Source of the DNA: a virus | Reading direction: 5' to 3' (one strand) | Virus record (IMG/VR): IMGVR_UViG_3300027550_000001 | Length of the DNA: 35,117 nt | In this document: piece after piece, positions 17,540 to 35,117 of the stretch | How the letters are laid out: every line of letters begins with the position of its first letter | Position numbering within the stretch: position 1 is the stretch's first letter | The notes under the pieces: generated by a model | The model's database searches: none | What the model saw: only the letters and a program-made list of their open reading frames with translations | Told to the model about the DNA's origin: nothing | Made by a program: the position numbers and the translations under genes

Positions 17540-18419
17540 AAAAACTTTATCTGAAACTTTGGAGGAAGGAATCTTGCCTGTAAATGAACCACAGGATGAG
17601 GAATTCGAAGAAGAATTAGAAGAAGAGGAAAAGGAAGAAGAGGAAGAAGAAGAGGAAGAAGAGGAAGAGGAAGACGAAGAGGAAGAGGAAGATGATGGAG
17701 AAACCGTATCCATTGGTCAAACTAGCGTTAATTTTGGCCCGCGCGAATTGACGAAAGGGGCGCGTGCTAAATTAAAAGATTTTGTCCACCAGGTATCCAA
17801 TGAACAAGCAACCATAACGGCAAGCAATAATAAACGGCGAGAGGAATTAGCAGCAAGGGAACAAGCCTTGGAGTCTTTGCAAGGGGTATCAGAAGAAGTG
17901 CTCTCGGCATATAGCCGTGGGGCGGCGATGCGTGATTCCTTAAATGCTATTCAGGAAAAATTGACTCCCAAATTGTGGGAAGATTCCCCAGATGAAGCGC
18001 GGCGACTTTCGGATGAACATGGACGCTTGCATTTTTATTTGACCCAATTAATCTCTGAATTGCAAACCAAAGAGCAAAGCCGAGCCACTGCAATTTCCGA
18101 GGAACGCGAAAGGAGGAAAAAGACGGGAGAAGCGGAAATGAACCGCTTATATCCAAAATTTAGTGAAAAGATAGCCCCAAAGATGGTAGATTATGCAGTA
18201 AGCAAGGGAGTTAGGCGTGAAGACGCTAATTTGTGGGGTCTCGACCCCATTATCGCGGATATGGTTTATAAATCCATGCTATGGGAGGATTTGCAACAGG
18301 CACGGAAACCAACCCCGAAACGGAAAAAGAGTATAACCAAAACCCCCGCTCGTCAGAAAAGGAAAAAGAGCTTTTCTGATATGTCCGATGAAGAATTCCG
18401 TAGGTTTATAGGTAAATAA
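17532..18419 (+). CDS. Scaffolding protein with a poly-Glu tract
   Basis: It lies between portal and coat, is helical and charged, and carries EEFEEELEEEEKEEEEEEEEEEEEDEEEEDDGE. The ATG at 17532 overlaps the portal 3' end. Confidence 0.7.
   Translation: MSKKTLSETLEEGILPVNEPQDEEFEEELEEEEKEEEEEEEEEEEEEDEEEEEDDGETVSIGQTSVNFGPRELTKGARAKLKDFVHQVSNEQATITASNNKRREELAAREQALESLQGVSEEVLSAYSRGAAMRDSLNAIQEKLTPKLWEDSPDEARRLSDEHGRLHFYLTQLISELQTKEQSRATAISEERERRKKTGEAEMNRLYPKFSEKIAPKMVDYAVSKGVRREDANLWGLDPIIADMVYKSMLWEDLQQARKPTPKRKKSITKTPARQKRKKSFSDMSDEEFRRFIGK
17597..17698. repeat. GAA/GAG low-complexity tract (poly-Glu coding)
   Basis: A visible run of gaa/gag triplets. It generates a spurious poly-Ser ORF on the opposite strand. 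Confidence 0.9.
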
Positions 18420-18421
18420 TC

Positions 18422-19729: not shown

Positions 19730-19749
19730 CCTAATTTAGGAGATTAGTG

Positions 19750-19959
19750 ATGCCAGAACCGAATCCTCGCGCATTAGGAGTTGGTGATTCTCGCGGAATC
19801 ACTATTGGCCTGAAAGATTCCCAAATAGGGTTTTTTGGGAAATGCGAAGAACAACAGAGCTTTACAAGCGCTGGCTCTACTCTTGACAATGTTGGTACAG
19901 ATGTGGAGCGAATTGTCACAATTTTGCGCGCTTATGGTTTGATAGCCCCATCCTCGTGA
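19750..19959 (+). CDS. Small capsid-associated protein (GFFG ... YGLI family), short paralog
   Basis: AGGAG lies 7 nt upstream of the ATG. The N-terminal PRALGVGDSRGITIGLKDSQIGFFGKCEEQQ and C-terminal ERIVTILRAYGLIA are both shared with the next gene. Confidence 0.7.
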   Translation: MPEPNPRALGVGDSRGITIGLKDSQIGFFGKCEEQQSFTSAGSTLDNVGTDVERIVTILRAYGLIAPSS

Positions 19960-19969
19960 GGATATAGTA

Positions 19970-20731
19970 ATGTCCAATGATGCAACTCCAAGATCATTAG
20001 GAGCCGGTGATGATAGGGGTATATCAGTTGGTTTGAAGGATTCCCAAGTGGGGTTTTTTGGGGAATGCGCAAAACAACAAGAGCTCACATTCTCACAAGT
20101 TGCGGCTAACCCGCAGGGCGTCGGAGGCTCGAATCCTACGCTTACCACAACTACTTTTACTAAAACCTCAGCTGGAATAACCCCAGCTACGGCTAACACT
20201 GCAGTATTATCTGGTTGGTCAACTGGATATACTGCGCCAACAGCCCCGACAAGTGCCACATTGGCAGCTACGCAAAATGCAGCACCTATAGCCACATATA
20301 CTCATGCCGATATTTCAGGAACTACTTATAATACCGCTGCTATAACCTATATAAATACATTATCTAGTAATGTGAGTGCGCTTATAACAGGTTATGGTAA
20401 ATTAAGAGCCGACTTATCGGATGTCAGGACAAAATACGCTAATTTATTGGGAGCCGTTAGTGGCCTTGTTACAGCATTAAATAAGGATCACGCAGATTTG
20501 GCCTTATTGAAAACAAGTCATGATACAAAGATAAAGATAGATATTCATAGCTTATGGACGGAGGCGAAATTGGTGGCGGCTGATATAGGCACAATACAAA
20601 CTAAATTGGGGCAAATAAAAACCGATCTTACGGCTTTGAAAAACGCAATAGGTACAACATCGGCAGATACTCTTAATGCTAATTTCACTAAGATAAAAAC
20701 TTTATTAAAGAGATATGGGTTTGTAAAGTAG
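19970..20731 (+). CDS. Capsid-surface / head-fibre-like protein, long paralog
   Basis: N-terminus PRSLGAGDDRGISVGLKDSQVGFFGECAKQQ and C-terminus FTKIKTLLKRYGFVK. The ~180-aa insert is Thr/Ala-rich and then heptad-like (LKTSHDTKIKIDIHSLWTEAKLVAADIGTIQTKLGQIKTDLTALKNAI). Confidence 0.6.
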   Translation: MSNDATPRSLGAGDDRGISVGLKDSQVGFFGECAKQQELTFSQVAANPQGVGGSNPTLTTTTFTKTSAGITPATANTAVLSGWSTGYTAPTAPTSATLAATQNAAPIATYTHADISGTTYNTAAITYINTLSSNVSALITGYGKLRADLSDVRTKYANLLGAVSGLVTALNKDHADLALLKTSHDTKIKIDIHSLWTEAKLVAADIGTIQTKLGQIKTDLTALKNAIGTTSADTLNANFTKIKTLLKRYGFVK

Positions 20732-20744
20732 ACAGGTAATCAAA

Positions 20745-22622
20745 ATGCCAAGTGCTAAAATAGAGCGCAATTTAAAACTAATTGCTGCTAATGTTCAACA
20801 AACCATCCCCAGGTTAATCCCTGAAATTGGGTTTTTTTCTGCATTGCAAGAAATTGATGATGATTGGAAACCTATTTTAAAAACGCCGCCAAGGAGTGAG
20901 CAATATTTTTTATCTAACATCTCGAAAGCTAAAATTTCAAGATATGCAGTAAAAGATATTACTTCTATTCAAGAAGAGGGGATTATAATCCAAAAGGTAT
21001 TTGCGCAATGTGGTTTTTATTTAAAGTCTTCTGAGCTTTCAGCTACTAATGTAAAATCCCGTGTGCTTTATTCTCAAATATCCGACCTCTGCAAGGATAT
21101 AAGAAAACAATTGCATGATATTATATATAGTGCGGAAAACGAAGTGGGATTGAGAAAAAGCGCAGCTATTACTGGCGGCGCGAAAGGTAAATATCTAGCC
21201 GCGTATAAAGAAATTGATGATAATAACGCAGAAGATTATCGAGCAATATTTTTGCCTGCTGAGATGAAATGGAATTTAATAAATCAAAATTCACAAATTA
21301 CCAAAGACCAACGGTTTATATGTACTAAGCCGCGAGATATAAAAAGGGGGAAATGGGAGGCTGGAAAAGGCACGAATCGAGATGTCGCGTTAAAACGAAT
21401 CACACGTTATGCAGCTAGAGCAAGGTATTGCGCCGGACTATCATATGTAGATAATTCGGCGAGAACAAGACCTGCCATTTCCGCCGATGGATCGGAGGTT
21501 TTGAAACAAGCTGTTAAAGAAGCTTTCAATGATGTATTGTTTTATTTAAAAGGATCATCTGAGGACGCCCCATCTAATCAGCAGCGCAATAGCACTAAAT
21601 TGGCGTGTATAGCTACTGACACAATAATCCAAGATATAAAATCAGGCAAATTTGCTTATGAAATAACATTTAATAAAAAGATTACGGCTTTTGGAACTAC
21701 GTCCCCTTTCACAGAAGCCAATTTATCAGATATCAAAACGCAAGCTGCCTATGCACAAAATGCAGCAGAAGAAAGAAACAAAACTTCGGCAACCGCCGAT
21801 AATAGTTTATACGCTATTGTATATACAGTAGCTATGCGCCTTGATGGTTCGATAACAACCGATTCAGCCTTAACATCAGCTGTAGCAGTATTATTGCAAA
21901 CTAATAATGGTGTTGATGCAACTACAGCCAATACATTAGCCGCTAGAGCCGTGGCAGATATCTCTGCAACTGATTATCCAAAGGTTTCCTCGTGGCCCAC
22001 ATTGACACATCAACCATTTGTTAGATTGGAGCAAGTAAAGATCCCAAATTTGGATAGTGCGGAGGACCGTGGGGCTTTTTTCTTAAAGGCGAAAATAGAG
22101 GGATTGGGAATTGCTAAAGGACAAATAAATCAAGGTGATTACTTTGAATTTGAAGATTATTATTATGCGGACTCAGGAGGAAGGATTGTCTCACCACCTA
22201 AGGCGGCATTATTTAAAGTAGTATCTATAAATCGGATTACCAATGGATTATTGGGGTCGTCTTATGATATAACTTTTGCCCCATTCGCAAATCCATGTGG
22301 GAATGATAAAACGGTTGACAGAATATTAAGACCATATATGCGAATTAATTCATCTGATGCCGCGCGCAGTAGGGAAAGCAATCGTTCATTCGGTGCGATT
22401 TGTTCCCCTTATGGGCTGTTATTAATTAATTTAACCAGGAAATCAGATTATATTGAGAACGAATCCACAGAATTAACTGTGGACGCGAGTGGAGTAAATT
22501 TTTTAATTGGACAAAAATACGACACACAAACAGATGTTATTGACTTTACCATATCAACCACTCTTGGAGTAGCATTTTTGGACCCAGGAGGGATTGTGGT
22601 TTTTTCACATTCAACAGCATGA
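20745..22622 (+). CDS. Virion structural protein, function unknown (625 aa)
   Basis: ORF track. It sits in the late operon between the capsid and tail genes. Confidence 0.6.
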   Translation: MPSAKIERNLKLIAANVQQTIPRLIPEIGFFSALQEIDDDWKPILKTPPRSEQYFLSNISKAKISRYAVKDITSIQEEGIIIQKVFAQCGFYLKSSELSATNVKSRVLYSQISDLCKDIRKQLHDIIYSAENEVGLRKSAAITGGAKGKYLAAYKEIDDNNAEDYRAIFLPAEMKWNLINQNSQITKDQRFICTKPRDIKRGKWEAGKGTNRDVALKRITRYAARARYCAGLSYVDNSARTRPAISADGSEVLKQAVKEAFNDVLFYLKGSSEDAPSNQQRNSTKLACIATDTIIQDIKSGKFAYEITFNKKITAFGTTSPFTEANLSDIKTQAAYAQNAAEERNKTSATADNSLYAIVYTVAMRLDGSITTDSALTSAVAVLLQTNNGVDATTANTLAARAVADISATDYPKVSSWPTLTHQPFVRLEQVKIPNLDSAEDRGAFFLKAKIEGLGIAKGQINQGDYFEFEDYYYADSGGRIVSPPKAALFKVVSINRITNGLLGSSYDITFAPFANPCGNDKTVDRILRPYMRINSSDAARSRESNRSFGAICSPYGLLLINLTRKSDYIENESTELTVDASGVNFLIGQKYDTQTDVIDFTISTTLGVAFLDPGGIVVFSHSTA

Positions 22623-23308
22623 AATTATTAGAAATAGCAAAGGCGGTTGCAGATGAAACCACAGCCCCATGTCCAGAAAGCTTTAATCATTTGCAATTAA
22701 CGCCGGAAGCCACTGGATTATTACGTGCTATAAATAAAGCTGGCTCTTTTGTAACGCGGACATTAGATTTAAATTCTAATTTAAAAGATCATACTGTTAC
22801 TCCTGAAAGTAATTATCCAACAATTCTTAGGGAGAATTTGCCTAAAAATTTTCTTAGATTTAAAGAGGAAACATTCAGGGATGCCGCTGATGGCTTCTAT
22901 ACCGGACCTTTGAATTATTCGGATTTCTTAAAAATAAAACAAAATGAAGGGACTAAAATTTTTAGTCTTTTAGCTAATGGAGTATATGTATATCCTAAAC
23001 CTTCACATGATTTGTCATTCGCTTATTTCCATGATGGCTGGGCCAAGGGTACCCGGCGAATAGGTTCTAAAGATCAAATAATCGAAATTAGCGAAATGAA
23101 GAAAGACGAGGATGAGACAATTGTTGATTCGGCACTTGTCATCTCTTTTGCTAAATATTTTTCATTGGTTTCAATGGGAGTAGAGGCTGTCAATGCAAGC
23201 AATGAAATTAAATATTTAAAGAAACATCTTCTATTGACAGAAGAAAAGGAAAGGAGCCCGTTCTATAAATATCCCATGCGCCCGCAACGATATATTTATG
23301 GGTTATAG
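22619..23308 (+). CDS. Putative adaptor / tail tubular protein A-like (229 aa)
   Basis: Called from position and size only, by analogy with T7 gp11 preceding gp12. 4-nt overlap with the upstream gene. Confidence 0.3.
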   Translation: MKLLEIAKAVADETTAPCPESFNHLQLTPEATGLLRAINKAGSFVTRTLDLNSNLKDHTVTPESNYPTILRENLPKNFLRFKEETFRDAADGFYTGPLNYSDFLKIKQNEGTKIFSLLANGVYVYPKPSHDLSFAYFHDGWAKGTRRIGSKDQIIEISEMKKDEDETIVDSALVISFAKYFSLVSMGVEAVNASNEIKYLKKHLLLTEEKERSPFYKYPMRPQRYIYGL

Positions 23309-23310
23309 TC

Positions 23311-24933
23311 ATGGGCACAATGACTTCAGTAATTATTCCGCCGCCTGTTGGGGGGATGCTGGCTCAATCAAATTTAATAATTACTGAAGATCAATACGCG
23401 CTAGAGTTGATAAATTGGGTTCCCGATATTGCCTCTATTGTATCCCGACGGGGATATGAATATTTTGAGGTAATCAATGAAGCGACAAGTGGCCCATTTA
23501 AATCATTAATCCCTTATAGCAATGGTTCAGAGAAAATTTTATTTGCTGCAAACGCCGATGGATTATTTAAAGTCCCAATATCCGCAGGGGCTACTATTTC
23601 CAAATTAACAAGCGGAGGCGTTGCTGAGAAATGGTCCGGGGCTATTATGTCGTCCGGTGACAAGGTTTATATGCGATTAACAGATGGATCTAACAAAAAT
23701 CTTATATATGATGGAACGACCATCTCAGATGCACAACACACTCCGTCGGGGGGAGTAACTTGGATTTATACTCATCAAGGAAGATTTTTTTTCGGCGTCC
23801 CGAATAGGTTGGATTTTTATTATTTAGATGCTAACGTAATTGATCCCGATTCTTCAAGCACGGAAGATGAGCCTTTCCATAAATTCATGTTAGGACAATT
23901 CATGAATAAAGGAGGGCGTTTAATAGGGATGGCGTCTTGGTCAATGGATACAGGATCAGGGATGCACGATTTCGCGGTATTTGTCTCAGACAGAGGTCAA
24001 TCCTGTGTTTATCAGGGATCTGATCCGAGCTCTTCAGCTACCTGGTCCCTAATTGGATTATTCGATCATGGGGAGCCAGTAAGTGATCGTTGTTTTCTTA
24101 GGGTTGGTGCTGAGTTGTTTATTTGGACCATGGATGGATTAATTAGCATGAAAACTATGATTTCTAAAACCACGGAAATATTAGGTCTTTCAGGAATCAC
24201 ATCGAAAGTTGCTATACCATTAACAGAAGATGTTAAAAAAGGAAAAAATAGTTTTGGATTTGAGGCTTGTTTATATTCTAATGGTCAGTTAATTATGTGC
24301 AATGTTCCTCTTGGTGAAAAATCTACCCAATATGTTTTTAACACATTGACAGGCGCAGCGTCTATCTTTAAAGGAATAAATATTCATTGCCTTGCGGAAG
24401 TTGATAATAAATTATTCGCGGGCGCATGCGAAAGAACTGATCGGAAATCTACTACGTCCCCTCCTCCCTCCGGCAGCCCTACTCATGCTTACGGAATATA
24501 TCAATTAGATACTGGCAGAACCGATAATGGAAACCCAATTGAATTAGATGTTAAGCACGCATTCACTTTTTTAGGTGATTCTACTCGGACTAAAAAAATC
24601 ACCCATGCTGAGATTCATTTAGAAGCTAGTCAATATCCAGACCTCCAATTTGAGGTATTAACTGATTTGGATCTCAAAGGAGGAAAATTAATTGGATCAG
24701 CCCCAACCGCAAAAAGTCTCTCATTATGGAGTGCGGGGTGCAGATGGGATTCTTGCACATGGGCAGGTTCGCATAAAGTTTATAATTTATATCGAGGGAT
24801 ACGTAAAATTTGCCGAACTGCCTCTATTCGGATAAAAACAGCAGCAAAAGACCTTCCTATGTCATTACATGGGACAACTGTATATTTTTCGTATACAGAT
24901 AAAACAACCCCGCGTGAGCGTGAAAATTTATGA
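23311..24933 (+). CDS. Putative tail tubular/nozzle protein B-like (540 aa)
   Basis: Called from position. The N-terminus (IIPPPVGGMLAQSNLIITEDQYALELINWVPDIASIVSRRGY) resembles the N-termini of podovirus nozzle proteins, as far as I recall. The composition is beta-rich. Confidence 0.35.
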   Translation: MGTMTSVIIPPPVGGMLAQSNLIITEDQYALELINWVPDIASIVSRRGYEYFEVINEATSGPFKSLIPYSNGSEKILFAANADGLFKVPISAGATISKLTSGGVAEKWSGAIMSSGDKVYMRLTDGSNKNLIYDGTTISDAQHTPSGGVTWIYTHQGRFFFGVPNRLDFYYLDANVIDPDSSSTEDEPFHKFMLGQFMNKGGRLIGMASWSMDTGSGMHDFAVFVSDRGQSCVYQGSDPSSSATWSLIGLFDHGEPVSDRCFLRVGAELFIWTMDGLISMKTMISKTTEILGLSGITSKVAIPLTEDVKKGKNSFGFEACLYSNGQLIMCNVPLGEKSTQYVFNTLTGAASIFKGINIHCLAEVDNKLFAGACERTDRKSTTSPPPSGSPTHAYGIYQLDTGRTDNGNPIELDVKHAFTFLGDSTRTKKITHAEIHLEASQYPDLQFEVLTDLDLKGGKLIGSAPTAKSLSLWSAGCRWDSCTWAGSHKVYNLYRGIRKICRTASIRIKTAAKDLPMSLHGTTVYFSYTDKTTPRERENL

Positions 24934-25439
24934 ATAAAATACTTTATGACCAGGATGAAAATATAGCAAATTGGATAATGAATCAATTATCCTATATTAC
25001 AGACTTCGGGTCGAATTATAAAGCATATGGAATTACCAGAAGCGGCAAATTGGTTGCTGGGATTGCTTTTCATGATTACAATCCTACATATCAAGTGATG
25101 CAATTTACGGTAGCGGCTACATCGCCATATTGGGCGCATCCTCATATTATAGATTATTTCATGAAGTATGTTTTTGAAAAAGCCAATGTGCATAGATTGC
25201 ATACGTATACTTATATCGGAAATGAAAAGGCGATTAAGATATTGTTACATGCTGGCTTTAAACAGGAGGCTATTATGGATTCCTTTTATGGCCGATCTCA
25301 TCATGGCGTGAGCTTTAGACTATTACGCACTGAATATGCGCAACGTTATTATGGGAATAAAAACAAATTCCGAGAACGTGACCAAATCTTACCTCCTCCT
25401 ATAAAAATACCAGAATTAATAGCCCGCCAAAATGGGTAG
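24930..25439 (+). CDS. GNAT-fold (RimJ/Acetyltransf_3-like) acetyltransferase homolog
   Basis: VAGIAFHDY...MQFTVAATSPYWAHPHIIDYFMKYVFEKANVHRLHTYTYIGNEKAIKILLHAGFKQEAIMDSFYG...GVSFRLLRTEY follows the GNAT beta4-alpha3-beta5-alpha4 pattern. The Q/RxxGxG/A AcCoA loop is replaced by YWAHPH. Confidence 0.6.
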   Translation: MNKILYDQDENIANWIMNQLSYITDFGSNYKAYGITRSGKLVAGIAFHDYNPTYQVMQFTVAATSPYWAHPHIIDYFMKYVFEKANVHRLHTYTYIGNEKAIKILLHAGFKQEAIMDSFYGRSHHGVSFRLLRTEYAQRYYGNKNKFRERDQILPPPIKIPELIARQNG

Positions 25440-25477
25440 AATGATTTCTCTGCATCAAACCCCGTTCGGAAAAGAAA

Positions 25478-26362
25478 ATGGGTAGTAAACCGAAGGCCCC
25501 GAAAATTGAAGCCCCAGATCCAGTGTTGGCTGCAAAATTGCAGCAATCGCTTGGCATGTTCGGACAACGGAATCCATATCAAACTCTTCGATATGAAAAG
25601 ACAGGAGAAACCCCAGAGGGAATATCACAATATGATATTGTACAGGAGTTCACGCCGGAGCAACAAGAGCTCTTTAATCGCGGCATGGGATTGAAAAAGG
25701 ATTTTTTGTCGGCACTCGAAGGTGCAATTGAACAAGCACCAACTACTCTAGATTATTCTAAATTGCAGTCTATATCGGGAATAGACCCTGAATCTATGAG
25801 GGAAAATTATAGTAAATATGTAGAATATTTCCGACCTGAAATGGAAGACCAAGCGGAAAGACAACGCGCTAAATTATTCTCCCAAGGATTCGGCATGGGA
25901 TCAGAAGTGCAAAGTCAACATCAGCAGAATGTAGGCAAACAATGGAATAATTTATTGTTTAATGCCGAAGAAAAAGCCTGGAATAGGGCAGCACAACAAA
26001 GGAACGAAGAAAGACTTTTACGTAATCAGCAAATATCAGAATTTTTACAACAACAACAACAACCTTTTAATGTGGTTAGACAATTAGGAGGATTAATTCC
26101 ACAGCAAGACGCCACATTCCAAATGGCTGACACAAACGGATTAATCCCCGATTTTATGCGAGCACAAGAAAATCAATTAGCACAAAGGAATGCAACGGCG
26201 CAGCAAAAATATGCTCGCCAAATGCAAGATTACCAACAACAACAAGCACTTTTGGGAACAGGCGCATCTATACTTGGCACAATAGGTGGGACGCTCATAG
26301 GTGGACCGCTAGGGGGGCAGGTAGGTGGCGCATTGGGAAGTGCATTTGGGAGTATATTCTAA
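25478..26362 (+). CDS. Putative internal virion/ejection protein (Gln-rich, C-terminal Gly-zipper)
   Basis: Gln-rich helical body with the C-terminus LLGTGASILGTIGGTLIGGPLGGQVGGALGSAFGSIF. Its position is equivalent to T7 gp14. Confidence 0.4.
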   Translation: MGSKPKAPKIEAPDPVLAAKLQQSLGMFGQRNPYQTLRYEKTGETPEGISQYDIVQEFTPEQQELFNRGMGLKKDFLSALEGAIEQAPTTLDYSKLQSISGIDPESMRENYSKYVEYFRPEMEDQAERQRAKLFSQGFGMGSEVQSQHQQNVGKQWNNLLFNAEEKAWNRAAQQRNEERLLRNQQISEFLQQQQQPFNVVRQLGGLIPQQDATFQMADTNGLIPDFMRAQENQLAQRNATAQQKYARQMQDYQQQQALLGTGASILGTIGGTLIGGPLGGQVGGALGSAFGSIF

Positions 26363-26364
26363 TA

Positions 26365-27459
26365 ATGTTTTCGGACCCATTTCGGAATCCTAATTTTGGA
26401 CAATTCGCTTTGCCGGAATGGGCAAAACGTCAAGGTATCGGAATTAGAGGGCAAGCAAAAGGTCAAATGCCCTTATCTCCGCAGGGGCGCATTGCACAAC
26501 AATTAGGATCGGTAGAAGATACAGGATGGGCAAGTGCTTTGATGAAAGGAGCTGGTGGATTTTTAGGAGCGCGTGATAAACAAGCTTATCAAAAAGCACA
26601 GAATGCTCTGACAGAAGGGTTATTGTCAGGTGGATTAGTCGGGGCAATTGAAAATTTGCAAGGAATGGATTCCTATTATGCAAACCAAGCTTTAAATCCA
26701 TTAGCTTATGCCAAAGTAGGGCAGCAACAGGCTTTAGAAGAAGAAAAAAGAAAGGAAGCCAGAGAGATAGAAGCTGAAAACAGACAATTTTCCAAAACCA
26801 AGTGGTTAAATCAATATCAACAAAATGCAGCTATTCGAAGGGATTATTTGCGGCATGAATTAGATATGCGAAAAGAACAAGCAAAACTGGCAGCTAAATT
26901 AACCGCAGGCGAGAAGCCGAATGAAAAATTAATATTCGATCAAGAAAGAGTATTACGTGATGAGTTTTCAAAGAATTCAAAAAATTACTATGAAAGTCTA
27001 AATGCTTTAAAGAAAATGAAAGCAACTGGAGAACAGGGAACCGCGCCTTCCGATGTTTCGCTTGTTACGCTTTTATTCAAAGCGGTCGATCCGGCATCAA
27101 CTGTTACTGAAAGCGAGCAAGCTATGCTTCGCAATTCCGGCTCATTTGGTAATAAAGTCGGAGGATATATTAGAAATGTTTTTCATGGCAAGACATTAAC
27201 TCAACAGCAAAGGGATGAGATAGTAAAAACGGCAGAGGTTTTAGTAAAACCATTGCGCGAAGAACACGACATGGTTAGGGATTGGTATGGTGAAGTAGCA
27301 GCCCAATATGGCTTGAATCCCGAACATATTTTGAGACGAAAATTTTATCAATCTGAGCCATCCAAGCCATCTCTTCCGAACTATAATGAAAAAGAAGAAG
27401 AGCAACAACCAGGATATTTATTAGATAGTCTATTGGCTAGAAAAATGAGCGCGATGTAA
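26365..27459 (+). CDS. Putative internal virion protein (364 aa)
   Basis: Called from position (equivalent to T7 gp15) and a coiled-coil-rich middle. Confidence 0.35.
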   Translation: MFSDPFRNPNFGQFALPEWAKRQGIGIRGQAKGQMPLSPQGRIAQQLGSVEDTGWASALMKGAGGFLGARDKQAYQKAQNALTEGLLSGGLVGAIENLQGMDSYYANQALNPLAYAKVGQQQALEEEKRKEAREIEAENRQFSKTKWLNQYQQNAAIRRDYLRHELDMRKEQAKLAAKLTAGEKPNEKLIFDQERVLRDEFSKNSKNYYESLNALKKMKATGEQGTAPSDVSLVTLLFKAVDPASTVTESEQAMLRNSGSFGNKVGGYIRNVFHGKTLTQQQRDEIVKTAEVLVKPLREEHDMVRDWYGEVAAQYGLNPEHILRRKFYQSEPSKPSLPNYNEKEEEQQPGYLLDSLLARKMSAM

Positions 27460-29252
27460 TGCCACAAGCTAATTTCGATCCACAGGCATTATTATATCCC
27501 GGCAACGCCGGAATGCCACATTTCCAACCGGGCGGCGTTAGTTTTAGTCCCTTACGGGACGTCCCTACGTCTCCTTACTGGCTTGGATCCCCGGGAAGAG
27601 GGACAGCTAACCCCTTGGGCCGAACCGCGCCAGCCCCATATCAGCACGCCATGGCAGATGTCCCAATAATGGATGTTTTACGCATGGCAGTACAGAATGT
27701 ACCATCGAGCATCCATGGCGTTTTGAGTAATTTTAACTATCCATTCTATCATCCAATAGAATTCTCAGAAAATTTAGGCAAATTAGCCGTCGGAGCAGTA
27801 CAAAAAGCTATTCCAGGAAGACAAAGTTACGAGGCATACCCTGAGCTTGTCATGGAAACATTAAAACAGCGATATGGCGGTAAAGGCCAATTAAAGGAAA
27901 CATTGGCAACCGATCCGGTGGGATTGCTTACGGAGGTGGCTGGCGTTTTGGGGCCCGGTTTAGCAAGCCTTCCCGGACGTCTTGGAGCTAAAGCCGGGGC
28001 TGCCGTGAACGCAACCGATATAACGCGAGCCCCGCAAGCGGCACTAAAAGGTGCCGTTTCTAGCATTAGTAATTTAAAAAATAAAATTGATCCTAACGCC
28101 AGAAAATTAATGGAAGAAGGAATAACCCCCACCATGGGGCAAACTTTCGGAGGAACCCCGGGAAGATGGGAAGAAAAGGCATCTTCAATCCCCGTATTGG
28201 GTGATGTAATTAATAATGCGAGAGGAAGGGCTGCCGAATCCTTCAATATGGCGGCATTTCAACGCGCGCTTGCTCCGATTGGCGAATCAACGGAAGGATT
28301 AAAGCCAGGAGCAACAGGATTACGGGAAGTTAGGAATAAAATTAGTGATAAATATGAGGCATTATTGCCGCAATTGAAGATTTCCGGCGATGATGATTTT
28401 TTCGGCGGCATCAAAGGTGTGCTTAATAAATACGGCAATGTATTGGAAAAGAAAAAAGGAAAACAATTAAATGCTATTGTTGATTCCAAAGTCGTAGATC
28501 ATTTTATAAAAGATGGCGACCTTACGGAAATTGACGGAAAAAAATTAAAGCATTTAGTTACTGAATTAAGAGTTACAAAGAGAAAATTTGAAGGAAGGTC
28601 CGGCTCGGATTCATTAATGGCTGATGCTTTCGATGAAATCGATAATTTAATTCAGCAACAATTGGTTAAAGACAATCCCAAATCGGCAGCGGAATTGAAA
28701 AATATAGATGCAAGCTGGGCGCATTATAAAGTGTTGGAAAAAGCCGGATCGAAAGCGGGAGCGACCGGAGAACAAGGATTTTCCCCAGCGCAGCTAGCAA
28801 ACGCAGTTAAAGATATTGATACAAGTATTGCAAAAGGGCGTACAGCGACTGGAGAGGCCCTCTATGCTGATTTGGCACAAGCTGCTAAGGAAACATTAGG
28901 CCCAAATGTGCCCGACAGTGGGACGGCTGGAAGAGGTTTACTAGCAAGTGCTCTTTTGGGAGGTACAGCAGTTGCTAGTCCAGCTACAGGAGCTACAATT
29001 TTAGCGGGTAGCTTGCCTTACACGCGACCTGGACAAAATGTCTTATCCAGATTAGCTACAGAAGGATTCTCGCCGGTCGAAGGAATGAATCGTGCTTTGC
29101 AGGTAGCCCCCAATATCGGACCTGCAGCTTTCCTTGCGGGACGCACATCTGAAGATTGGCTCAACCCAGAAGAACATACCGAACGAATGCAAAATCCCCG
29201 CATGAATTTGCAAGAATCTTTATTACAAAGATTATTGGAAAATAGGAGATAG
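27459..29252 (+). CDS. Putative internal virion/ejection protein (597 aa)
   Basis: Called from position (equivalent to T7 gp16). It has Gly/Ala-rich hydrophobic stretches (GLLASALLGGTAVASPATGATILAG). Confidence 0.35.
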   Translation: MPQANFDPQALLYPGNAGMPHFQPGGVSFSPLRDVPTSPYWLGSPGRGTANPLGRTAPAPYQHAMADVPIMDVLRMAVQNVPSSIHGVLSNFNYPFYHPIEFSENLGKLAVGAVQKAIPGRQSYEAYPELVMETLKQRYGGKGQLKETLATDPVGLLTEVAGVLGPGLASLPGRLGAKAGAAVNATDITRAPQAALKGAVSSISNLKNKIDPNARKLMEEGITPTMGQTFGGTPGRWEEKASSIPVLGDVINNARGRAAESFNMAAFQRALAPIGESTEGLKPGATGLREVRNKISDKYEALLPQLKISGDDDFFGGIKGVLNKYGNVLEKKKGKQLNAIVDSKVVDHFIKDGDLTEIDGKKLKHLVTELRVTKRKFEGRSGSDSLMADAFDEIDNLIQQQLVKDNPKSAAELKNIDASWAHYKVLEKAGSKAGATGEQGFSPAQLANAVKDIDTSIAKGRTATGEALYADLAQAAKETLGPNVPDSGTAGRGLLASALLGGTAVASPATGATILAGSLPYTRPGQNVLSRLATEGFSPVEGMNRALQVAPNIGPAAFLAGRTSEDWLNPEEHTERMQNPRMNLQESLLQRLLENRR

Positions 29253-29255
29253 AAA

Positions 29256-30785
29256 ATGCCACGCGATGCAACTGGAGTTTTTACTAGGTCAGTATCCTCT
29301 TATCAATCTGGGGCGATTATTTCTTCGGAAGAAGTGAATCAGGAAATGGATGATATAGCCACTGCGCTTACACAATCATTAAATACTTCGGGGACTGCCA
29401 GAATAAACGCCGATATAAGTATGCAAGATGCCTCAGCGAATAATCATAGGCATACAAATGTTGCTGCAGGTAATAATCGCAATCATTATGCCGACGTGGG
29501 GAGCGTGCAAGATAACCGTTATCACTTATTAAGTGGCGTTTTAGTTTCAGGAACAACTCTAACAGCAGTTACAAACCCCATTATTCCTGCATATGTAAAT
29601 GGACAAATATTTATTTTTAATTCCCCCGCCAATACCAGTAGGGTTACGCATATTAATTTAAACACAAAAGGCCTCAAACCAATCATCGGCAAAATCGCGC
29701 CATCAAGCGCGCACGCAGCATTCTATTATGACCCAAACTTCTATATTATGCCATTAACTTCGGGTGTTGTTTTCCCATCCGGCGTTGTTGATAATGATTT
29801 ATTGGCCTATGTAAACGGAACATTAGCAGCGAAAAAAATAGGTACCGATATTCAAGCATTCAGCACTATATTAGCCAGCATCACAACTAATGCAACCGCG
29901 AGTAATGCTAAGAAATTACTAAAATATAGTGCGGCAGCCCCGTATAATTTAGAAGTGATAGGTGGGGCAGCTGAAGGTAAAGTATTGATGTATTCATCAA
30001 ATGATGTTGTATGGGGCTCTCCCTTAGGATCTTTTGACGTTCAAACAATTAAAAGCATAGCGGGAGGGGTTACTTGGAATAGACCTTCTAATTTTAAAGC
30101 CATCAAAGTCACTTTGGTAGGCGGAGGCGGAGGCGCAGGCGGCACACCAGTTGCAGATACGAGGGGTAATGGACGGTTCGGATTTAGTGGAGGCGGTGGG
30201 GAAAGTGTTATAGCATATATCCCATCGAGTCTTATATCTGGCAATTTAACCGTAATTATAGGAAGAGGCGGAAATGGAGGTGGGCTCCCACCGTCCCAAA
30301 GCAGCGAGGGGGCGGATGGCACCGCAGGAGGGGCTACACAATTAAAACATTCTAATACAATATTATTGTCGGCAGCTGGCGGCGCAGGAGGAGGTCAAGA
30401 ACGAAGGATCAGCCCGAGAACGGAGCCAGCGTGGTACGGGTTCCAATTGGGGGGGGCTGGTGGGGAAACAACTACCACCGCTGGTAAAGGCACACTTTCA
30501 AATAAAGAAATAATAAGAATACCAGGAGAAGCCGGTCAACCTACGTTACGCCTTGATAGCGACGATCAATTGATTTTTACAGCGCGTGGTGGAGATACCA
30601 TATTTAAAGGTGGTGCAAAACCGCGCGAGGGGACACGAACCGTGAGTTCCCAACGGCAGGACATAAATGGGAATCATGGAATATCAAATACAGGAGGGGG
30701 AGGCGGCGGTTCATTTTCGAATACAACGACGGGCGCGCGCGGAGGGAATGGAGCCTCCGGTATTGCAATCATAGAAACTTACTAG
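29256..30785 (+). CDS. Tail fibre protein with a C-terminal glycine-rich domain
   Basis: The N-terminus MPRDATGVFTRSVSSYQSGAIISSEEVNQEMDDIATALTQSLNTSG is the common tail-fibre N-terminal pattern. The C-terminus has VTLVGGGGGAGG, GGGGESV, GRGGNGGG and TGGGGGGS blocks. It is the last gene of the late operon. Confidence 0.7.
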   Translation: MPRDATGVFTRSVSSYQSGAIISSEEVNQEMDDIATALTQSLNTSGTARINADISMQDASANNHRHTNVAAGNNRNHYADVGSVQDNRYHLLSGVLVSGTTLTAVTNPIIPAYVNGQIFIFNSPANTSRVTHINLNTKGLKPIIGKIAPSSAHAAFYYDPNFYIMPLTSGVVFPSGVVDNDLLAYVNGTLAAKKIGTDIQAFSTILASITTNATASNAKKLLKYSAAAPYNLEVIGGAAEGKVLMYSSNDVVWGSPLGSFDVQTIKSIAGGVTWNRPSNFKAIKVTLVGGGGGAGGTPVADTRGNGRFGFSGGGGESVIAYIPSSLISGNLTVIIGRGGNGGGLPPSQSSEGADGTAGGATQLKHSNTILLSAAGGAGGGQERRISPRTEPAWYGFQLGGAGGETTTTAGKGTLSNKEIIRIPGEAGQPTLRLDSDDQLIFTARGGDTIFKGGAKPREGTRTVSSQRQDINGNHGISNTGGGGGGSFSNTTTGARGGNGASGIAIIETY

Positions 30786-30788
30786 AAT

Positions 30789-30864
30789 TGGTGGGCCATC
30801 GGGGATTCGAACCCCGGACCAAGGGATTATGAGTCCCACGCTCTAACCGCTAAGCTAACGGCCC
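30789..30864 (-). tRNA. tRNA with CAU anticodon (elongator Met, or Ile2 if lysidine-modified); CCA encoded
   Basis: Reverse complement: GGGCCGT TA GCTT AGCGGTTA GAGC G TGGGA CTCATAA TCCCT TGGTC CGGGG TTCGAAT CCCCG ATGGCCC A CCA. It folds as a full 76-nt cloverleaf with a 7-bp acceptor stem (one G-U pair), a 4-bp D stem, a 5-bp T stem and a TTCGAAT loop. The G1-C72 pair argues against an initiator. Confidence 0.9.
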
Positions 30865-30910
30865 GTTGGCGACAGATAATGCCCTAAAAGAAGAATCCCT
30901 CTGGAGGATA

Positions 30911-31041
30911 GAAAGAGTGGCATCTCGGATTTCAGGTCCTTGGATAGACAGCGGTTAGCCCGGAGTCCCCGAAACCTCTAACTTTCCATCCCCTAAAGGG
31001 ATGCTGGGAATATAGTGGGTTCATGAATAAATGTCAATCCC
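30911..31041. repeat. Promoter-leader module, copy B (paralog of 3923..4047)
   Basis: See copy A. In this copy the palindrome is degraded, but the -35/-10 and the ...gaaatccgaga.gc.ac..ctttc leader block are kept. Confidence 0.8.
31009..31037 (-). promoter_or_regulatory. Sigma70-type promoter upstream of the tRNA
   Basis: The reverse complement reads TTGACA-tttattcatgaacccac-TATATT with a 17-nt spacer. It lies about 135 nt upstream of the tRNA 5' end. Confidence 0.65.
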
Positions 31042-31051
31042 CGCCGACGGA

Positions 31052-31423
31052 TCAGATGTGCTGATCTTTCGAAATGCCGAAAGCCCATGCCTTTAGCATC
31101 CCGTCGAGGCATTCATTAGTTGCATCATAGATAGACGGAAGATCGCTTTTTTCTAATAAATCTTCTGCGTTTATTTCATTTATTGCCAGATTAACCAATG
31201 CTTGACACATGGGATCATTGTATAAAACCTTCTGAAAAATACTCTCCATAACTGCAAAAGCAATCTCTGCGTAATGATCTTCCCTTTGCGGCTCCAAAGC
31301 ATTTTCATAAGCAAATTGTTTGAGCCGATCTAAGGTCATTTTGAAGATTTTCTCTACACGCTCATGACCGATAGTAATGGTGTTTTCGGACAGAACATCA
31401 AGGACTCTGGAATTACCGGACAT
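31052..31423 (-). CDS. Hypothetical protein (123 aa from ATG 31423; ORF track extends to 31453)
   Basis: ORF track. GAGG lies 8 nt upstream of the ATG at 31423 (MSGNSRV...). No motif recognised. Confidence 0.55.
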   Translation of the reverse strand: MSGNSRVLDVLSENTITIGHERVEKIFKMTLDRLKQFAYENALEPQREDHYAEIAFAVMESIFQKVLYNDPMCQALVNLAINEINAEDLLEKSDLPSIYDATNECLDGMLKAWAFGISKDQHI

Positions 31424-31476
31424 TTCGATTACCTCTTGGTGTGGATAGCGCATCCTTGTGCTATATCGTGGAGTTA

Positions 31477-31806
31477 CTATTCCTTATCGGACTTTTCAAA
31501 GGGTTGCCATTTCCGAAGGTGGATGGCTTGGGCGAATAGAAACCCTCCTAGTCTCATTTCCGCTTCTGACTTACTCAAGGCAAGTATTCTACTTGCGTCA
31601 TCATCCCTACAGATGTGTTTTACAGCGTTACGCGCAAGAGCACTCATTATCCCTGGATGGCCATCTAATCGACTGAGACCATCTAGAATCACATCTGAAA
31701 GACCTTCTATGAACGCATCATGAATGATGTTTCCATCAATAAGAACAGATACGAATTCATGGATTTCTCGCCGTAAGACGGTTTCTCTTTGTTTCGTGAG
31801 GTGCAT
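31477..31806 (-). CDS. Hypothetical protein (109 aa)
   Basis: ORF track. AGGAGGG lies just upstream of the ATG. Confidence 0.6.
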   Translation of the reverse strand: MHLTKQRETVLRREIHEFVSVLIDGNIIHDAFIEGLSDVILDGLSRLDGHPGIMSALARNAVKHICRDDDASRILALSKSEAEMRLGGFLFAQAIHLRKWQPFEKSDKE

Positions 31807-32348: not shown

Positions 32349-32936
32349 CTAATGCCGCGTGGTGCTCTTCCTCGCCAAACCAAGGTTTTCTAGAAACCAG
32401 CGTATTAGGGTTTTGGAATCACACTTCCAATATTCATCTGGTTTCACCTCTATAAGCCCAGCGTTGGCTAAGCAATCCAGCGTAGATATGTAGTCCAATT
32501 GGTCGGCTTCGGCCCATGACATGATCCATTTATCATGTCTTACTATATGGTATAGAATATGCCGAAGGACAGGGCAATCCAGCTTAGACATGTCGTCCAA
32601 TTGGTCGGCTTCAGCCCATGACATGATCCATTTATCATGTCTTACTATATGGTATAGAATATGCCGCAAGAATGGCTCTAAATCATAAGTTTGCTCCCCA
32701 CAGTTATCGCGCGCGCCATACGTATTCATGTCGACAAATGCGTTCGATTTCATGTATTCATCGATTAATGGACGTAAGATCATACCCGCTTGCAGGATGC
32801 TTTGAGTGGCGCGCAAGTATTTATCCTTGGTTTTTACATCGAGATATGCCCAACCTGCGAAATCTTTATTAGATAGTGCATAGATTACCATCTCGTCGAG
32901 CGTGTCGTTGGGGGTCATGTTCTGATCTCTCTTCAT
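32349..32936 (-). CDS. W..W..aGLI family protein with an internal 34-aa duplication (about 195 aa; start uncertain: TTG 32951, ATG 32936 or ATG 32918)
   Basis: LRHILYHIVRHDKWIMSWAEADQLD occurs twice. The C-terminus DYISTLDCLANAGLIEVKPDEYWKCDSKTLIRWFLENL aligns with the 1266..1774 paralogs. Confidence 0.7.
   Translation of the reverse strand: MKRDQNMTPNDTLDEMVIYALSNKDFAGWAYLDVKTKDKYLRATQSILQAGMILRPLIDEYMKSNAFVDMNTYGARDNCGEQTYDLEPFLRHILYHIVRHDKWIMSWAEADQLDDMSKLDCPVLRHILYHIVRHDKWIMSWAEADQLDYISTLDCLANAGLIEVKPDEYWKCDSKTLIRWFLENLGLARKSTTRH
32472..32666. repeat. In-frame tandem duplication: two 93-bp copies with a 102-bp period
   Basis: 32472..32564 and 32574..32666 differ at 4 positions (G/T, T/C, A/C, G/A). 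The period is 102 bp, equal to 34 codons. Confidence 0.95.
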
Positions 32937-32987
32937 TAGTTGTCTTCTCAATTGATGGACACATCATATCTGCAAGCTTGCAGGATG

Positions 32988-33440
32988 TCAAGGACATTTT
33001 GCAGATTTTAGCACTACCGAATGCGGATAGCATCCCAGCCATGCGAGGGGAGCCACTCCCTCTTCGGCTGCTAAGGTCTCTGCTATAAATTTGTAAAGGG
33101 CTTTGTTATGTAGGAAATAGGATCTTTCGAGTATGGTATTATATTCTACCATTACTTCCTCCAACGGTAGCTCTTTTAAAGACCATCTAAAATACCTGCA
33201 TTTGTCTATCAATCTATACATCGTAGAGATGATAACGCCGTCCAAAACTTCCTCAACCTCTTCTGAGTATCCGATGGGGTCATCGGGCGCGCGGCGCGCT
33301 GCCGTGAGTTCAACATAGGTATCACTATAGAGTTTTTTTAAAAAGTTAGCTCCTTTGCTTGCGAACTCTTGGTTGGTAAGAGCTGCACTCATGGCTGAGT
33401 GCAGAGTTTCGGAAATTAGGATGTCTTGGCTTTCGTTCAT
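32988..33440 (-). CDS. Hypothetical protein (150 aa)
   Basis: ORF track. 4-nt overlap with the upstream XRE gene. Confidence 0.6.
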   Translation of the reverse strand: MNESQDILISETLHSAMSAALTNQEFASKGANFLKKLYSDTYVELTAARRAPDDPIGYSEEVEEVLDGVIISTMYRLIDKCRYFRWSLKELPLEEVMVEYNTILERSYFLHNKALYKFIAETLAAEEGVAPLAWLGCYPHSVVLKSAKCP

Positions 33441-33661: not shown

Positions 33662-33946
33662 TTAGGGTTCCGTCAATCTGTAGGGTTCAGTCAATCTGTA
33701 GAACAGATCCTCACCGGATATGATCTCACCCAGTATCTCCTTAATAGACTTAAGATCGCGTGGTTTCTTTTTACCTAGCTTTACTAGCTTCTCCGCCAAT
33801 TCTTGCAGGTGGATTTGATCTTCCTTAGTTATGGGATAATGGGTAAGGTGCTTACTAGTTAGATATAAATAAATCTCCTCTGCTATTTCCTCCGAAAACT
33901 CACGGTTGATCTTTCTTGCAACTTTAAGTTCGGAAGCTTTTAACAC
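33662..33946 (-). CDS. Small acidic helical protein (94 aa) with a C-terminal YRLTEP YRLTEP repeat
   Basis: GTG start with AAGGA 8 nt upstream. The 3' end contains an 18-bp tandem repeat (agggttc.gtcaatctgt x2, about 33665..33700). Confidence 0.55.
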   Translation of the reverse strand: MLKASELKVARKINREFSEEIAEEIYLYLTSKHLTHYPITKEDQIHLQELAEKLVKLGKKKPRDLKSIKEILGEIISGEDLFYRLTEPYRLTEP

Positions 33947-33986: not shown

Positions 33987-34934
33987 TCAAATCGTGAGGG
34001 CGCAAGGTAGCCGAGCCTTGGATTGATCAGCGTGGGTCAGGTCAGCCCCGGTCAGGTCAGCCTCGGTCAGGTCAGCCCCGGTCAGATCAGCCCAGGTCAG
34101 GTCAGCCTCGGTCAGGTCGGCCCCGCTCAGGTCGGCCCCGGCCAGGTAAGCCTTGGTCAGGTCGGCCTTGGTCAGGTCGGCCCAGGCCAGGTAAGCCTTG
34201 GTCAGGTTGGCCTTGGTCAGGTTAGCCCCGGTCAGATCAGCCCAGTTCAGGTCAGCCCCGGTCAGGTCGGCCCCGGTCAAGTCTGCGTTGGTCAAGGTTG
34301 CCTGGGTCAAGTTCGACCAGGCTAGATCCACCCCGAGGCAATTTGCCTCGGTCAAGATTGCCTTGGTGAAGTTCGCTCCGGTCAGGTTGGCCTTGGTGAG
34401 GTTCGCTCCGGTCAGGTTTGCCTCGGCCAAGATCGCCTGGGGCAAAGTCGCCTCGCTCGGGTAAACCTCGATCAAGATCGCCTCGGTCAGGTTTTCCTGG
34501 GCCAGGTTCGCCTCGGTCAGGTAAGCCTCGGTCAAGATCGCCCCGGTCAGGTTTGCCTGGGCCAGGTTCGCCCCGGTCAGGTTTGCCCCGGTCAGGTTTG
34601 CCTGGGCCAGGTTCGCCCCGGTCAGGTTTGCCTGGGCCAGGTTCGCCTCGGTCAGGTCGGCCTTGGTGAGGTTCGCTCCGGTCAGGTCCTTTCCTTTCAG
34701 GTTGCCCCCAGTCAGGAAGGCCCCGGTCAAGTTTGCCCCGGTCAAGGTTGCCTCGGTCAGGTCGGCCCCGGTCAAGTCTGCGTTGGTCAAATCCGCGTTG
34801 GTCAGGTCAGCCCAGGTCATGTGTGCCCAGGGCAGGTCGGCTCCGGTCAGGTCGGCCCAGGTCGGATTCGCCTCGGTCAGATCCTTTCCTTTTAGGCAGG
34901 CGTCTCTGGGCTTGGTCTTGTCGAGTTTTGTCAT
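33987..34934 (-). CDS. Pentapeptide-repeat protein B (PRP-B, 315 aa)
   Basis: ORF track. MTKLDKTKPRDACLKGKDLTEANPTWADLTGADL... continues as nearly uninterrupted A(D/N)LT(G/E/K/Q) pentads. The N-terminus and about 40 nt of 5' UTR are paralogous to PRP-A. Confidence 0.9.
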   Translation of the reverse strand: MTKLDKTKPRDACLKGKDLTEANPTWADLTGADLPWAHMTWADLTNADLTNADLTGADLTEATLTGANLTGAFLTGGNLKGKDLTGANLTKADLTEANLAQANLTGANLAQANLTGANLTGANLAQANLTGAILTEAYLTEANLAQENLTEAILIEVYPSEATLPQAILAEANLTGANLTKANLTGANFTKAILTEANCLGVDLAWSNLTQATLTNADLTGADLTGADLNWADLTGANLTKANLTKAYLAWADLTKADLTKAYLAGADLSGADLTEADLTWADLTGADLTEADLTGADLTHADQSKARLPCALTI

Positions 34935-34970
34935 TTCTTTTCACTCTTTGGTTTCGATTCCGGCTTCCTC

Positions 34971-35117
34971 CTATATCGCCACCCCGGTCCCCCCGGATGG
35001 GGATTCGCCATCCTTTCCCCTTTTTGTCCCTCTCAGGAAAAAGCCGGACGGTAGCTGAGCCTTGGTCAACGCAGCCCCGGTCAGATCCGTGTTTTCAAGG
35101 TTGGCCTTGGTCAGGTC
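34971..35117 (-). CDS. 3' end of PRP-A (34991..35117 duplicates 1..127)
   Basis: Manual minus-strand translation ends ...KDGESPSGGTGVAI* with TAG at 34973..34971, in frame with the ATG at 748 once position 1 is equated with 34991. Confidence 0.8.
   Translation of the reverse strand, partial: DLTKANLENTDLTGAALTKAQLPSGFFLRGTKRGKDGESPSGGTGVAI
34991..35117. repeat. Terminal direct repeat, copy 2 (identical to 1..127)
   Basis: See copy 1. Confidence 0.95.

Follow-up and report, generated by a model that had tools for sequence, protein, structure and literature searches.

Tandem acidic pentapeptide-repeat genes in a circular phage genome: candidates for early counter-defence or host takeover

What would a tailed phage do with two adjacent genes whose products consist of almost nothing but pentapeptide repeats? 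The pair lies in the IMG/VR virus record IMGVR_UViG_3300027550_000001, a stretch of 35,117 nucleotides (nt) that was analysed at its full length and that we call the window, and it codes for two pentapeptide-repeat proteins (PRPs) of 255 and 315 residues, PRP-A and PRP-B. An initial annotation, made from the sequence before any database search, had proposed them as candidate DNA-mimic decoys against host DNA-targeting defences or as modulators of host topoisomerases. Our analysis leaves that interpretation partly supported. We tentatively read the two PRPs as early counter-defence or host-takeover proteins that bind or decoy a host protein, and consider the more specific version, in which they do so by mimicking DNA, doubtful.

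The terminal 127 nt of the window are duplicated (1..127 is identical to 34991..35117); the phage genome is therefore circular and 34,990 bp long, the window carries these 127 nt twice as an assembly overlap, and the gene model of PRP-A, which wraps around the junction, is valid. The two genes together occupy 1,716 nt or 4.9% of the genome, close to the 5% first estimated. PRP-A and PRP-B can be aligned from end to end with 50% identity and with gaps that are all multiples of five residues, and the genes are nearly identical at their 5' ends, in ~35 nt of leader and ~65 nt of the adjoining coding sequence. The shared leader and N-terminus, both already remarked upon in the initial annotation, indicate tandem paralogs that were duplicated together with their ribosome-binding region. 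Thus two adjacent PRP paralogs, as first described, are borne out by the Pfam matches given below, by the alignment and by the terminal overlap.

Both proteins match the Pfam family Pentapeptide (PF00805), whose gathering cut-off is 20.2 bits, with 271 bits for PRP-A (E = 1.4e-82) and 342 bits for PRP-B (E = 7.1e-105). At the DNA level, Tandem Repeats Finder recovers a 15-nt unit in 39 copies in PRP-A and 55 copies in PRP-B, the units being ~70% identical to each other. The five-residue register runs unbroken from residue 1 to the C-terminal tail in both proteins, through 51 and 63 units, respectively, with leucine at the central position of 46 units in PRP-A and 55 in PRP-B; position i-2 is mostly alanine, i-1 aspartate or asparagine, and i+1 mostly threonine. 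Pfam detects no second domain in either protein, and the solenoid has neither insertion nor loop. We also considered a non-coding repeat array and rejected it: the opposite strand is open as well, but PRP matches (271-342 bits) arise only from the minus-strand frames.

For each PRP the predicted fold is a rod-shaped beta-solenoid, right-handed and four-sided, with about 11-15 coils, in line with the beta-helix proposed at the outset. Single-sequence AlphaFold2 (AF2) models reach a mean predicted local distance difference test score (pLDDT) of 76.5 for PRP-B and 71.9 for PRP-A, with residues 11-100 of PRP-A above 90, and they contain a beta-bridge every five residues, as a four-sided solenoid predicts. 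The sole irregularity of the solenoid is a low-confidence break in the PRP-B model at the proline-containing residues 161-165, and the tail of the PRP-A model (residues 201-255) is disordered, with pLDDT below 50. The coils of PRPs rise by ~4.8 Å each, and 11-15 coils would give rods of roughly 55-75 Å. When the models are compared to the PDB with Foldseek, the top matches are all PRPs, with HetL (3DU1) best at E = 1e-14, followed by designed "beta1" solenoids, Np275/276, and then QnrB1, MfpA, AlbG and EfsQnr; a sequence search of the PDB returns the same order. We rejected a comparison of overall shape with MfpA and Qnr, the Foldseek TM-scores of 0.13-0.47 being uninformative, probably through register shifts and the low-confidence break in the model.

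Membership of the gyrase-acting PRP families, on which the initial annotation had leaned, does not hold up. PRP-A and PRP-B score 78.7 and 93.6 bits against the Qnr model NF033086 (cut-off 240), 45-84 bits against the Qnr subfamily models (cut-offs 425-500), and 69.2 and 77.3 bits against the MfpA model NF000349 (cut-off 360), all of them below threshold. The HetL model NF047416 gives 149.4 and 243.3 bits against a cut-off of 260, also below, and these are sums over 2-3 overlapping repeat matches. The model of Alr5209 (NF052603, 113 positions, cut-off 125) gives 142.8 and 199 bits only by summing 4-5 matches on proteins two to three times as long, and this score appears to be a repeat artefact and not a sign of orthology. 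To judge from these profile scores, PRP-A and PRP-B belong to the broad PRP superfamily and not to the topoisomerase-protecting families. In Qnr, loops A and B interrupt the solenoid and are needed for quinolone protection, and in MfpA, Qnr and AlbG a C-terminal alpha-helix mediates the tail-to-tail dimer. Since the register is unbroken, loops of the Qnr type are absent from the window PRPs, and a C-terminal helix is found in neither AF2 model (both are models of monomers, and the PRP-A tail has a pLDDT below 50). We thus consider it improbable that the two proteins act like Qnr, MfpA, AlbG and McbG, as mimics of the T- or G-segment DNA on gyrase or topoisomerase IV, whether to tune host supercoiling for phage replication or to shield gyrase from a toxin. 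The fold and an acidic surface are shared with those proteins, and small gyrase inhibitors with folds of another kind, Igy and Gip among them, are known from phages (PMC10886550); nevertheless, scores far below the cut-offs, missing loops, the lack of a predicted C-terminal helix, and the rank of Qnr, MfpA and AlbG, which by sequence as well as by fold come after HetL, the designed consensus solenoids and Np275/276, all speak against this role. The idea of a decoy or modulator is a reasonable one and not new in principle; its link to gyrase is without direct support in the sequence.

Both PRPs are strongly acidic, with net charges of -20 (PRP-A) and -22 (PRP-B) and isoelectric points (pI) of 4.10 and 4.17. 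Per 100 residues this amounts to -7.8 and -7.0, compared with a median of -2.6 for the 120 most similar proteins, six of which are as acidic, and all seven of the other phage PRPs that we compared are less acidic than either.

The codon usage of the two genes sets them apart from the rest of the genome. The G+C content at third codon positions (GC3) is 0.81 in the PRP genes and 0.36 in the 38 other open reading frames (ORFs), and the contrast is evident in individual codons (CTG for leucine, 61% versus 5%; ACC for threonine, 87% versus 24%; AAC for asparagine, 93% versus 23%). The G+C (GC) content of the genes is 0.61-0.63, whereas the phage's own codon usage would give 0.44-0.46. In seven other phages, the GC content of the PRP genes roughly follows that of the genome in which they reside. 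This pattern points to a recent acquisition of the PRP genes from a GC-rich donor. A founder effect, in which a GC-rich repeat unit was amplified, is another possible source of the bias; that the units are only ~70% identical argues against a very recent amplification. The regulatory and accessory region as a whole (31800..2700, across the junction) has a GC3 of 0.44-0.58, compared with 0.27-0.44 in the structural and replication genes (6200..30800), which suggests a mosaic origin that reaches beyond the two PRP genes.

The nearest relative that we found, phage Ga0209452_1000111 (30.3 kb), has the structural and replication modules in common with the window phage, with identities of 70% for the large terminase subunit (TerL), 53% for the primase and 40% for the portal protein, and its whole 30.3-kb contig contains no PRP gene. 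Being absent from this relative, the PRP genes appear to be accessory; distant marine relatives with a similar primase likewise have no PRP nearby. Between tail genes and primase, Ga0209452_1000111 carries an 862-residue ORF and a gene for a 386-residue ParA/CbiA-family ATPase instead of the PRPs. By eye, the 862-residue ORF (94..2682 of its locus) resembles a type IIG or BREX-PglX-like N6-adenine methyltransferase that may include a specificity region, and a methyltransferase-like ORF in the interval of the PRP operon hints at a swap of anti-restriction cargo. The ATPase gene (710..1870 of its locus) hints at plasmid-like maintenance.

A second, independent assembly (ENA ERZ27247848, k141_467734) matches the window over 20,948 nt without a mismatch and with a single gap of 30 nt. 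The gap removes two DADLT units, leaving three instead of five, and shortens PRP-A to 245 residues; this difference may be a real polymorphism or an assembly artefact. Published comparisons of three near-identical phage pairs list in-frame PRP indels of the same kind as one of few differences: 15 bp between phages L and ST64T (PMC8022706), 375 bp between Caulobacter phages RW and GB2A (PMC11053796), and 75 bp between Vibrio phages 24 and CP-T1 (PMC5690320). The repeat-number indels in these three phage pairs match the 30-nt repeat difference in the window.

Foreign codon usage, absence from the nearest relative and variable repeat number might also describe a passenger of little or no use to the phage: a GC-rich PRP gene captured recently from a cellular donor, doubled through unequal recombination and now drifting by repeat slippage. 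The codon usage is indeed extremely unlike that of the rest of the genome, and no orthologs were found in other phages. We nonetheless regard a passenger as quite unlikely: neither reading frame is interrupted in its 255 or 315 codons, the pentapeptide consensus is well kept, with its central leucine in most units, the indels between the paralogs and between the assemblies are all multiples of 15 nt, the duplication preserved the leader and ribosome-binding site, and PRP-A has a predicted strong promoter. Intact frames, a kept consensus, 15-nt indels and the leader and promoter point to purifying selection in a tightly packed genome.

PRP genes are not rare among phages. Searches with tblastn find PRP matches in 471-481 of 50,697 GenBank phage records (~1%), in phages of Mycobacterium, Rheinheimera, Staphylococcus, Listeria, Salmonella, Ralstonia, Caulobacter, Microcystis and others, and several PHROG families and many BFVD entries are PRPs. 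In six of the seven other phages whose gene context we examined, the PRP gene resides in an early or non-structural region (Table 1); one of the six is Listeria phage CKA15, where it belongs to an operon on the long terminal repeat (PMC12282133). A tandem PRP pair is also present in Microcystis phage MaMV-DC, and the arrangement is therefore not unique to the window. A functional precedent comes from Vibrio phage 24: a 2024 preprint reports that its escape mutants on the RexAB-like system Sucellos map to the PRP gene 24_60, which encodes gp60, and that deletion of 24_60 sensitises the phage to Sucellos (10.1101/2024.07.02.601686). The PRP gene was also mutated in Staphylococcus phages with improved host range (PMC8065394). 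The statement in the initial annotation that no characterised phage system of this kind is known is thus out of date, given PRPs in ~1% of phage records and the genetic evidence in that preprint for an action of gp60 against Sucellos.

Several observations on these phage PRPs deserve mention in their own right. Salmonella phage ST64T orf232 and Vibrio phage 24 gp60 are 50% identical (E = 6e-55), and the similarity includes a non-repeat C-terminal domain with an RAGC motif; orf232 sits in the early-left operon where P22 has sieB. Caulobacter RW gp016 ends, by eye, in a similar C-terminal motif (IRAGCRTFTLEQF), and the shared C-terminal domain suggests a widespread PRP family that may act against abortive-infection systems. 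In gp57 of Mindy, a cluster E mycobacteriophage (KR080204, 3938..4783), the repeats are followed by a C-terminal DUF5758 domain (PF19062), and in a metagenomic locus the PRP (4023..4805), among small genes upstream of a phage-integrase gene, likewise carries DUF5758, which makes this a recurrent phage architecture.

The genome around the PRP genes is that of a tailed phage, with genes for a large terminase, a P22-type portal protein (PF16510), a scaffold-sized product, a major head protein, tail proteins and an endolysin, and the terminase-to-endolysin set is encoded on the plus strand from ~6.2 to 30.8 kb. Replication genes encode a Prim-Pol/AAA_25 primase-helicase, a RuvC-like resolvase and a Cas4/RecE-like exonuclease. 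The PRP genes are on the strand opposite to the contiguous structural module (13.8-30.8 kb), which bears on whether their products could be virion-associated, either structural or injected, such as a fibre or an ejection protein. Weak matches to phrog_28766, annotated as a tail fibre (E = 1e-6 and 3e-11), and beta-helical tailspikes far down the Foldseek lists are all that lean in this direction, and we hold it to be highly improbable: the proteins have no other domain, the stronger PHROG matches are all to families of unknown function, and in six of the seven other phages examined, with Ralstonia PQ43W as the exception, the PRP gene resides in a non-structural region.

Within the window, PRP-A is preceded by the putative near-consensus promoter that had been proposed for it, a match to 11 of the 12 consensus positions 64 nt upstream of the ATG. 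No terminator-like site was found on the minus strand from PRP-A through PRP-B to the downstream genes, which encode small proteins without a significant family match and a helix-turn-helix (HTH) regulator, as first described. The claim that the pair heads an operon stands in part. The promoter is itself preceded by two small ORFs on the same strand (1795..1266); PRP-A is thus the first gene of a sub-operon defined by this promoter and not of the whole leftward unit, which extends from a divergent regulatory point at ~1.8-1.9 kb across the junction to the tRNA gene at 30,864..30,789.

This arrangement could also be that of a moron or lysogenic-conversion cassette, transcribed from a promoter of its own while the phage persists as a prophage or in a carrier, perhaps plasmid-like, state, and serving superinfection exclusion or altering host physiology to the advantage of the lysogen. 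The near-consensus promoter is autonomous, the foreign codon usage is typical of morons, the genome has four XRE-type HTH genes, and the ParA/CbiA-family ATPase gene of the nearest relative suggests plasmid-like maintenance. Moreover, P22-like phages hold a PRP gene in the slot of P22 sieB (PMC8022706), and some defence proteins, Hailong for one, contain PRP domains (PMC13586616). We judge a moron to be unlikely all the same: no integrase or partition gene was seen among the annotated genes of this genome, PADLOC gives no match for the PRPs or their neighbours, and the PRP genes lie within a leftward unit together with early-type genes, not behind a terminator-bounded island.

We return to the tentative reading of the PRPs as early binders or decoys of a host protein. 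A GC-rich PRP gene would have been acquired horizontally and then duplicated in tandem. The two genes would be transcribed from the strong sigma-70-type promoter and would come first in a leftward accessory operon, followed by a 94-residue ORF, an XRE-type HTH gene and a 150-residue ORFan. Their products, stand-alone PRPs with no signal peptide and no enzyme or other domain, would act as stoichiometric binders or decoys, nucleic-acid mimicry being one possible mode of binding. Duplication and 15-nt slippage would quickly change the length and charge of the rods, as expected for genes engaged in an arms race. We favour this reading because of the position and promoter of the genes, the lack of an enzymatic or structural domain, the acidity, the duplication and the variation in repeat number, together with the foreign origin, the absence from the closest relative, and the positional precedents and the one experimental precedent in other phages. 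The timing of expression, the cytoplasmic location, the mechanism of binding or decoy and the target are what we infer from these features; the accessory genes are probably expressed early, with their products in the cytoplasm, and a structural or enzymatic role is unlikely.

Several points weigh against this reading. First, the charge is patchy: a map by coil places acidic coils near both ends, and in the middle of PRP-B too, with neutral, asparagine-rich coils between them. Second, a search for PRP orthologs yields 6,055 matches, all repeat-driven, of which the best has 52% identity, so that no close ortholog exists in the collections searched, and the back-translated N-terminal cap motif has no match in IMG/VR; a search there with the major head protein gave no relatives either. 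Third, McbG and QnrB do not inhibit BREX (PMC7261183), which shows that DNA mimicry of the PRP type is not a general anti-defence activity. Fourth, the Sucellos precedent transfers weakly, since gp60 and orf232 belong to a different subfamily. Fifth, our searches did not identify the host, which leaves us without a target system to propose: none of 185,579 species genomes contains an exact copy of the tRNA, a scan of the same genomes with a TerL profile gives a single distant match (35% identity, in a metagenome-assembled Saccharibacteria genome), and no near DNA relative of the window was found among GenBank phages. Sixth, the order of promoter, PRP-A, PRP-B, 94-residue ORF and HTH gene would fit the acr-aca type, but no operator-like inverted repeat was found at the PRP-A promoter, and all that precedes its -35 hexamer is a pair of 11-nt direct repeats, a count not above chance; a regulatory circuit of the acr-aca type is therefore not supported.

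A bolder proposal would be that these unusually acidic solenoids, without loops or further domains, form a new class of phage nucleic-acid-mimic decoys, in which the two paralogs target different host DNA-binding defence or repair systems and 15-nt slippage, as in the DADLT array with its three or five copies, retunes length and charge in the course of the arms race. At present we think this rather unlikely.

Table 1. Positions of the PRP genes and surrounding features in the window, and context of PRP genes in other phages.
Feature	Position	Strand	Basis or remarks
PRP-A, codons 1-249	748..1	-	ATG at 748; translation and repeat register; crosses the circular junction
PRP-A 3' end	34971..35117	-	34990..34971 hold the last 6 codons and stop; 34991..35117 duplicates 1..127
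PRP-B, 315 residues, 63 pentapeptides	34934..33987	-	ORF; Pfam PF00805; AF2 beta-solenoid; Foldseek
Putative sigma-70-type promoter of PRP-A	839..812	-	TTGACA-16 nt-TATCAT, TG before -10; 11/12 consensus match
PRP-A leader and ribosome-binding region	749..785	-	duplicated upstream of PRP-B (alignment)
PRP-A/PRP-B spacer, 36 nt	34935..34970	-	duplicated leader GGAAGCCG..AACCAAAGAG.GAAAAGAA ATG
DADL(T/S) x5 array, PRP-A residues 26-50	599..673	-	most acidic segment (charge map)
94-residue ORF	33662..33946	-	directly downstream of PRP-B; no significant family match
XRE-type HTH regulator, 74 residues	33437..33661	-	Pfam HTH_19, E = 9e-14; HTH_3, E = 1.7e-10; phrog_8
150-residue ORFan	32988..33440	-	4-nt overlap with the stop of the HTH gene
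200-residue ORF	32349..32951	-	own promoter-like site
Two small ORFs, 96 and 80 residues	1795..1505, 1508..1266	-	upstream of the PRP-A promoter
HTH gene	1914..2183	+	diverges from the two small minus-strand ORFs
tRNA, anticodon CAT	30864..30789	-	ARAGORN: tRNA-Met; ends the leftward transcription unit
orf232 and gp60	AY052766 11086..11784; KJ572844 12900..13322	-; +	
Salmonella ST64T orf232			early-left operon, flanked by ral and gene 17; c2 is adjacent (PMC8022706)
Mycobacteriophage Mindy gp57 (PRP and DUF5758)			third in an operon divergent from the immunity repressor
Caulobacter RW gp016			among small early genes
Vibrio phage 24 gp60			flanked by methylase genes, a regulator and the primase gene
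Microcystis phage MaMV-DC ORF32L and ORF31L			adjacent paralogous PRPs downstream of an XRE gene
Ralstonia PQ43W PRP			the exception: small opposite-strand island between head genes

Apart from the HTH gene, none of the ORFs downstream of PRP-B has a significant Pfam, PHROG or PADLOC match, and the 150-residue ORFan has a single real relative among 1.84 billion representative proteins. The layout of the HTH gene and this ORFan resembles a small regulator-effector or toxin-antitoxin-like pair. The 3' end of the 94-residue ORF holds an 18-nt tandem repeat of 2.2 copies (33663..33701) that encodes a duplicated C-terminal peptide, RLTEPYRLTEP. Within the 200-residue ORF is a 102-nt tandem repeat of 1.9 copies that are 95% identical (32472..32666), and each copy contains a promoter-like TTATCA-17-TAGAAT on the strand opposite to the ORF. 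The tRNA gene has its own promoter-like site (31037..31009, minus strand, 11/12 match), and its best matches in E. coli are genes annotated as tRNA-Ile, with about 78% identity over the full length. With its CAT anticodon it is probably a lysidine-type tRNA-Ile2 that reads AUA, as would fit a phage whose codon usage is AT-rich.

About 1% of sequenced phages, infecting very different hosts, encode stand-alone PRPs, and the genes usually rank among the first ones beside the repressor, yet almost none has a known function. If acidic PRPs were indeed decoys of defence or DNA-handling proteins, they would constitute a broad and easily recognised class of anti-defence genes, and one could explain why PRP genes are hotspots of repeat-number change between otherwise identical phages. 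The locus described here adds no new principle by itself; it is a clean, extreme example, and a good candidate for experiments once a host or surrogate exists.

How do the two PRPs compare with known systems? The best matches in both sequence and fold are the cyanobacterial and designed PRPs, i.e. HetL/All3740 (3DU1), Np275/Np276 (2J8K), Alr5209 (6OMX) and the synthetic "beta1" (4YC5/4YFO). Like the window proteins, they lack an enzymatic domain and are built of near-ideal A(D/N)L(S/T)X repeats that are seldom or never interrupted. The window proteins differ in being encoded by a phage, in their greater length of 51 and 63 units, and in their stronger acidity. HetL acts by binding the regulator HetR. 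With Qnr, MfpA, AlbG and McbG the resemblance lies in the same fold, the acidic character and the idea of DNA mimicry; the unmet family cut-offs, the lack of loops and of a predicted C-terminal helix, and a lower rank in the searches separate the window PRPs from Qnr, MfpA and AlbG. T7 Ocr and ArdA are likewise acidic, elongated, early products of mobile elements, but they are unrelated in fold and sequence, Pfam yields only PRP families in the window proteins, and the charge density of Ocr and ArdA exceeds the -7 to -8 per 100 residues found here.

Among phages, gp60 of Vibrio phage 24 and orf232 of ST64T and L are similar in being phage-encoded PRPs of early, non-structural operons with in-frame repeat-number indels. 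Their subfamily, however, combines an N-terminal helix, near-neutral ADLRG repeats and the globular C-terminal domain with the RAGC motif, none of which is present in the window PRPs, which are acidic solenoids of the ADLTG type with only repeats and short tails. The closest match in architecture is the pair ORF32L and ORF31L of MaMV-DC, adjacent paralogs with N- and C-terminal ends in common and an XRE gene upstream, which also provide the best single-piece tblastn match for PRP-B (E = 7e-49). Unlike the window PRPs, these proteins have a non-repeat N-terminal domain of ~45-100 residues and are much less acidic, with a pI of 4.8-5.4, and their codon usage is native (GC3 of 0.42-0.45, with a locus GC of 0.42). 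Set beside these systems, the pair described here is unusual for its pure solenoid that lacks any further domain, for an acidity above that of every other phage PRP in the comparison, and for its striking contrast in codon usage.

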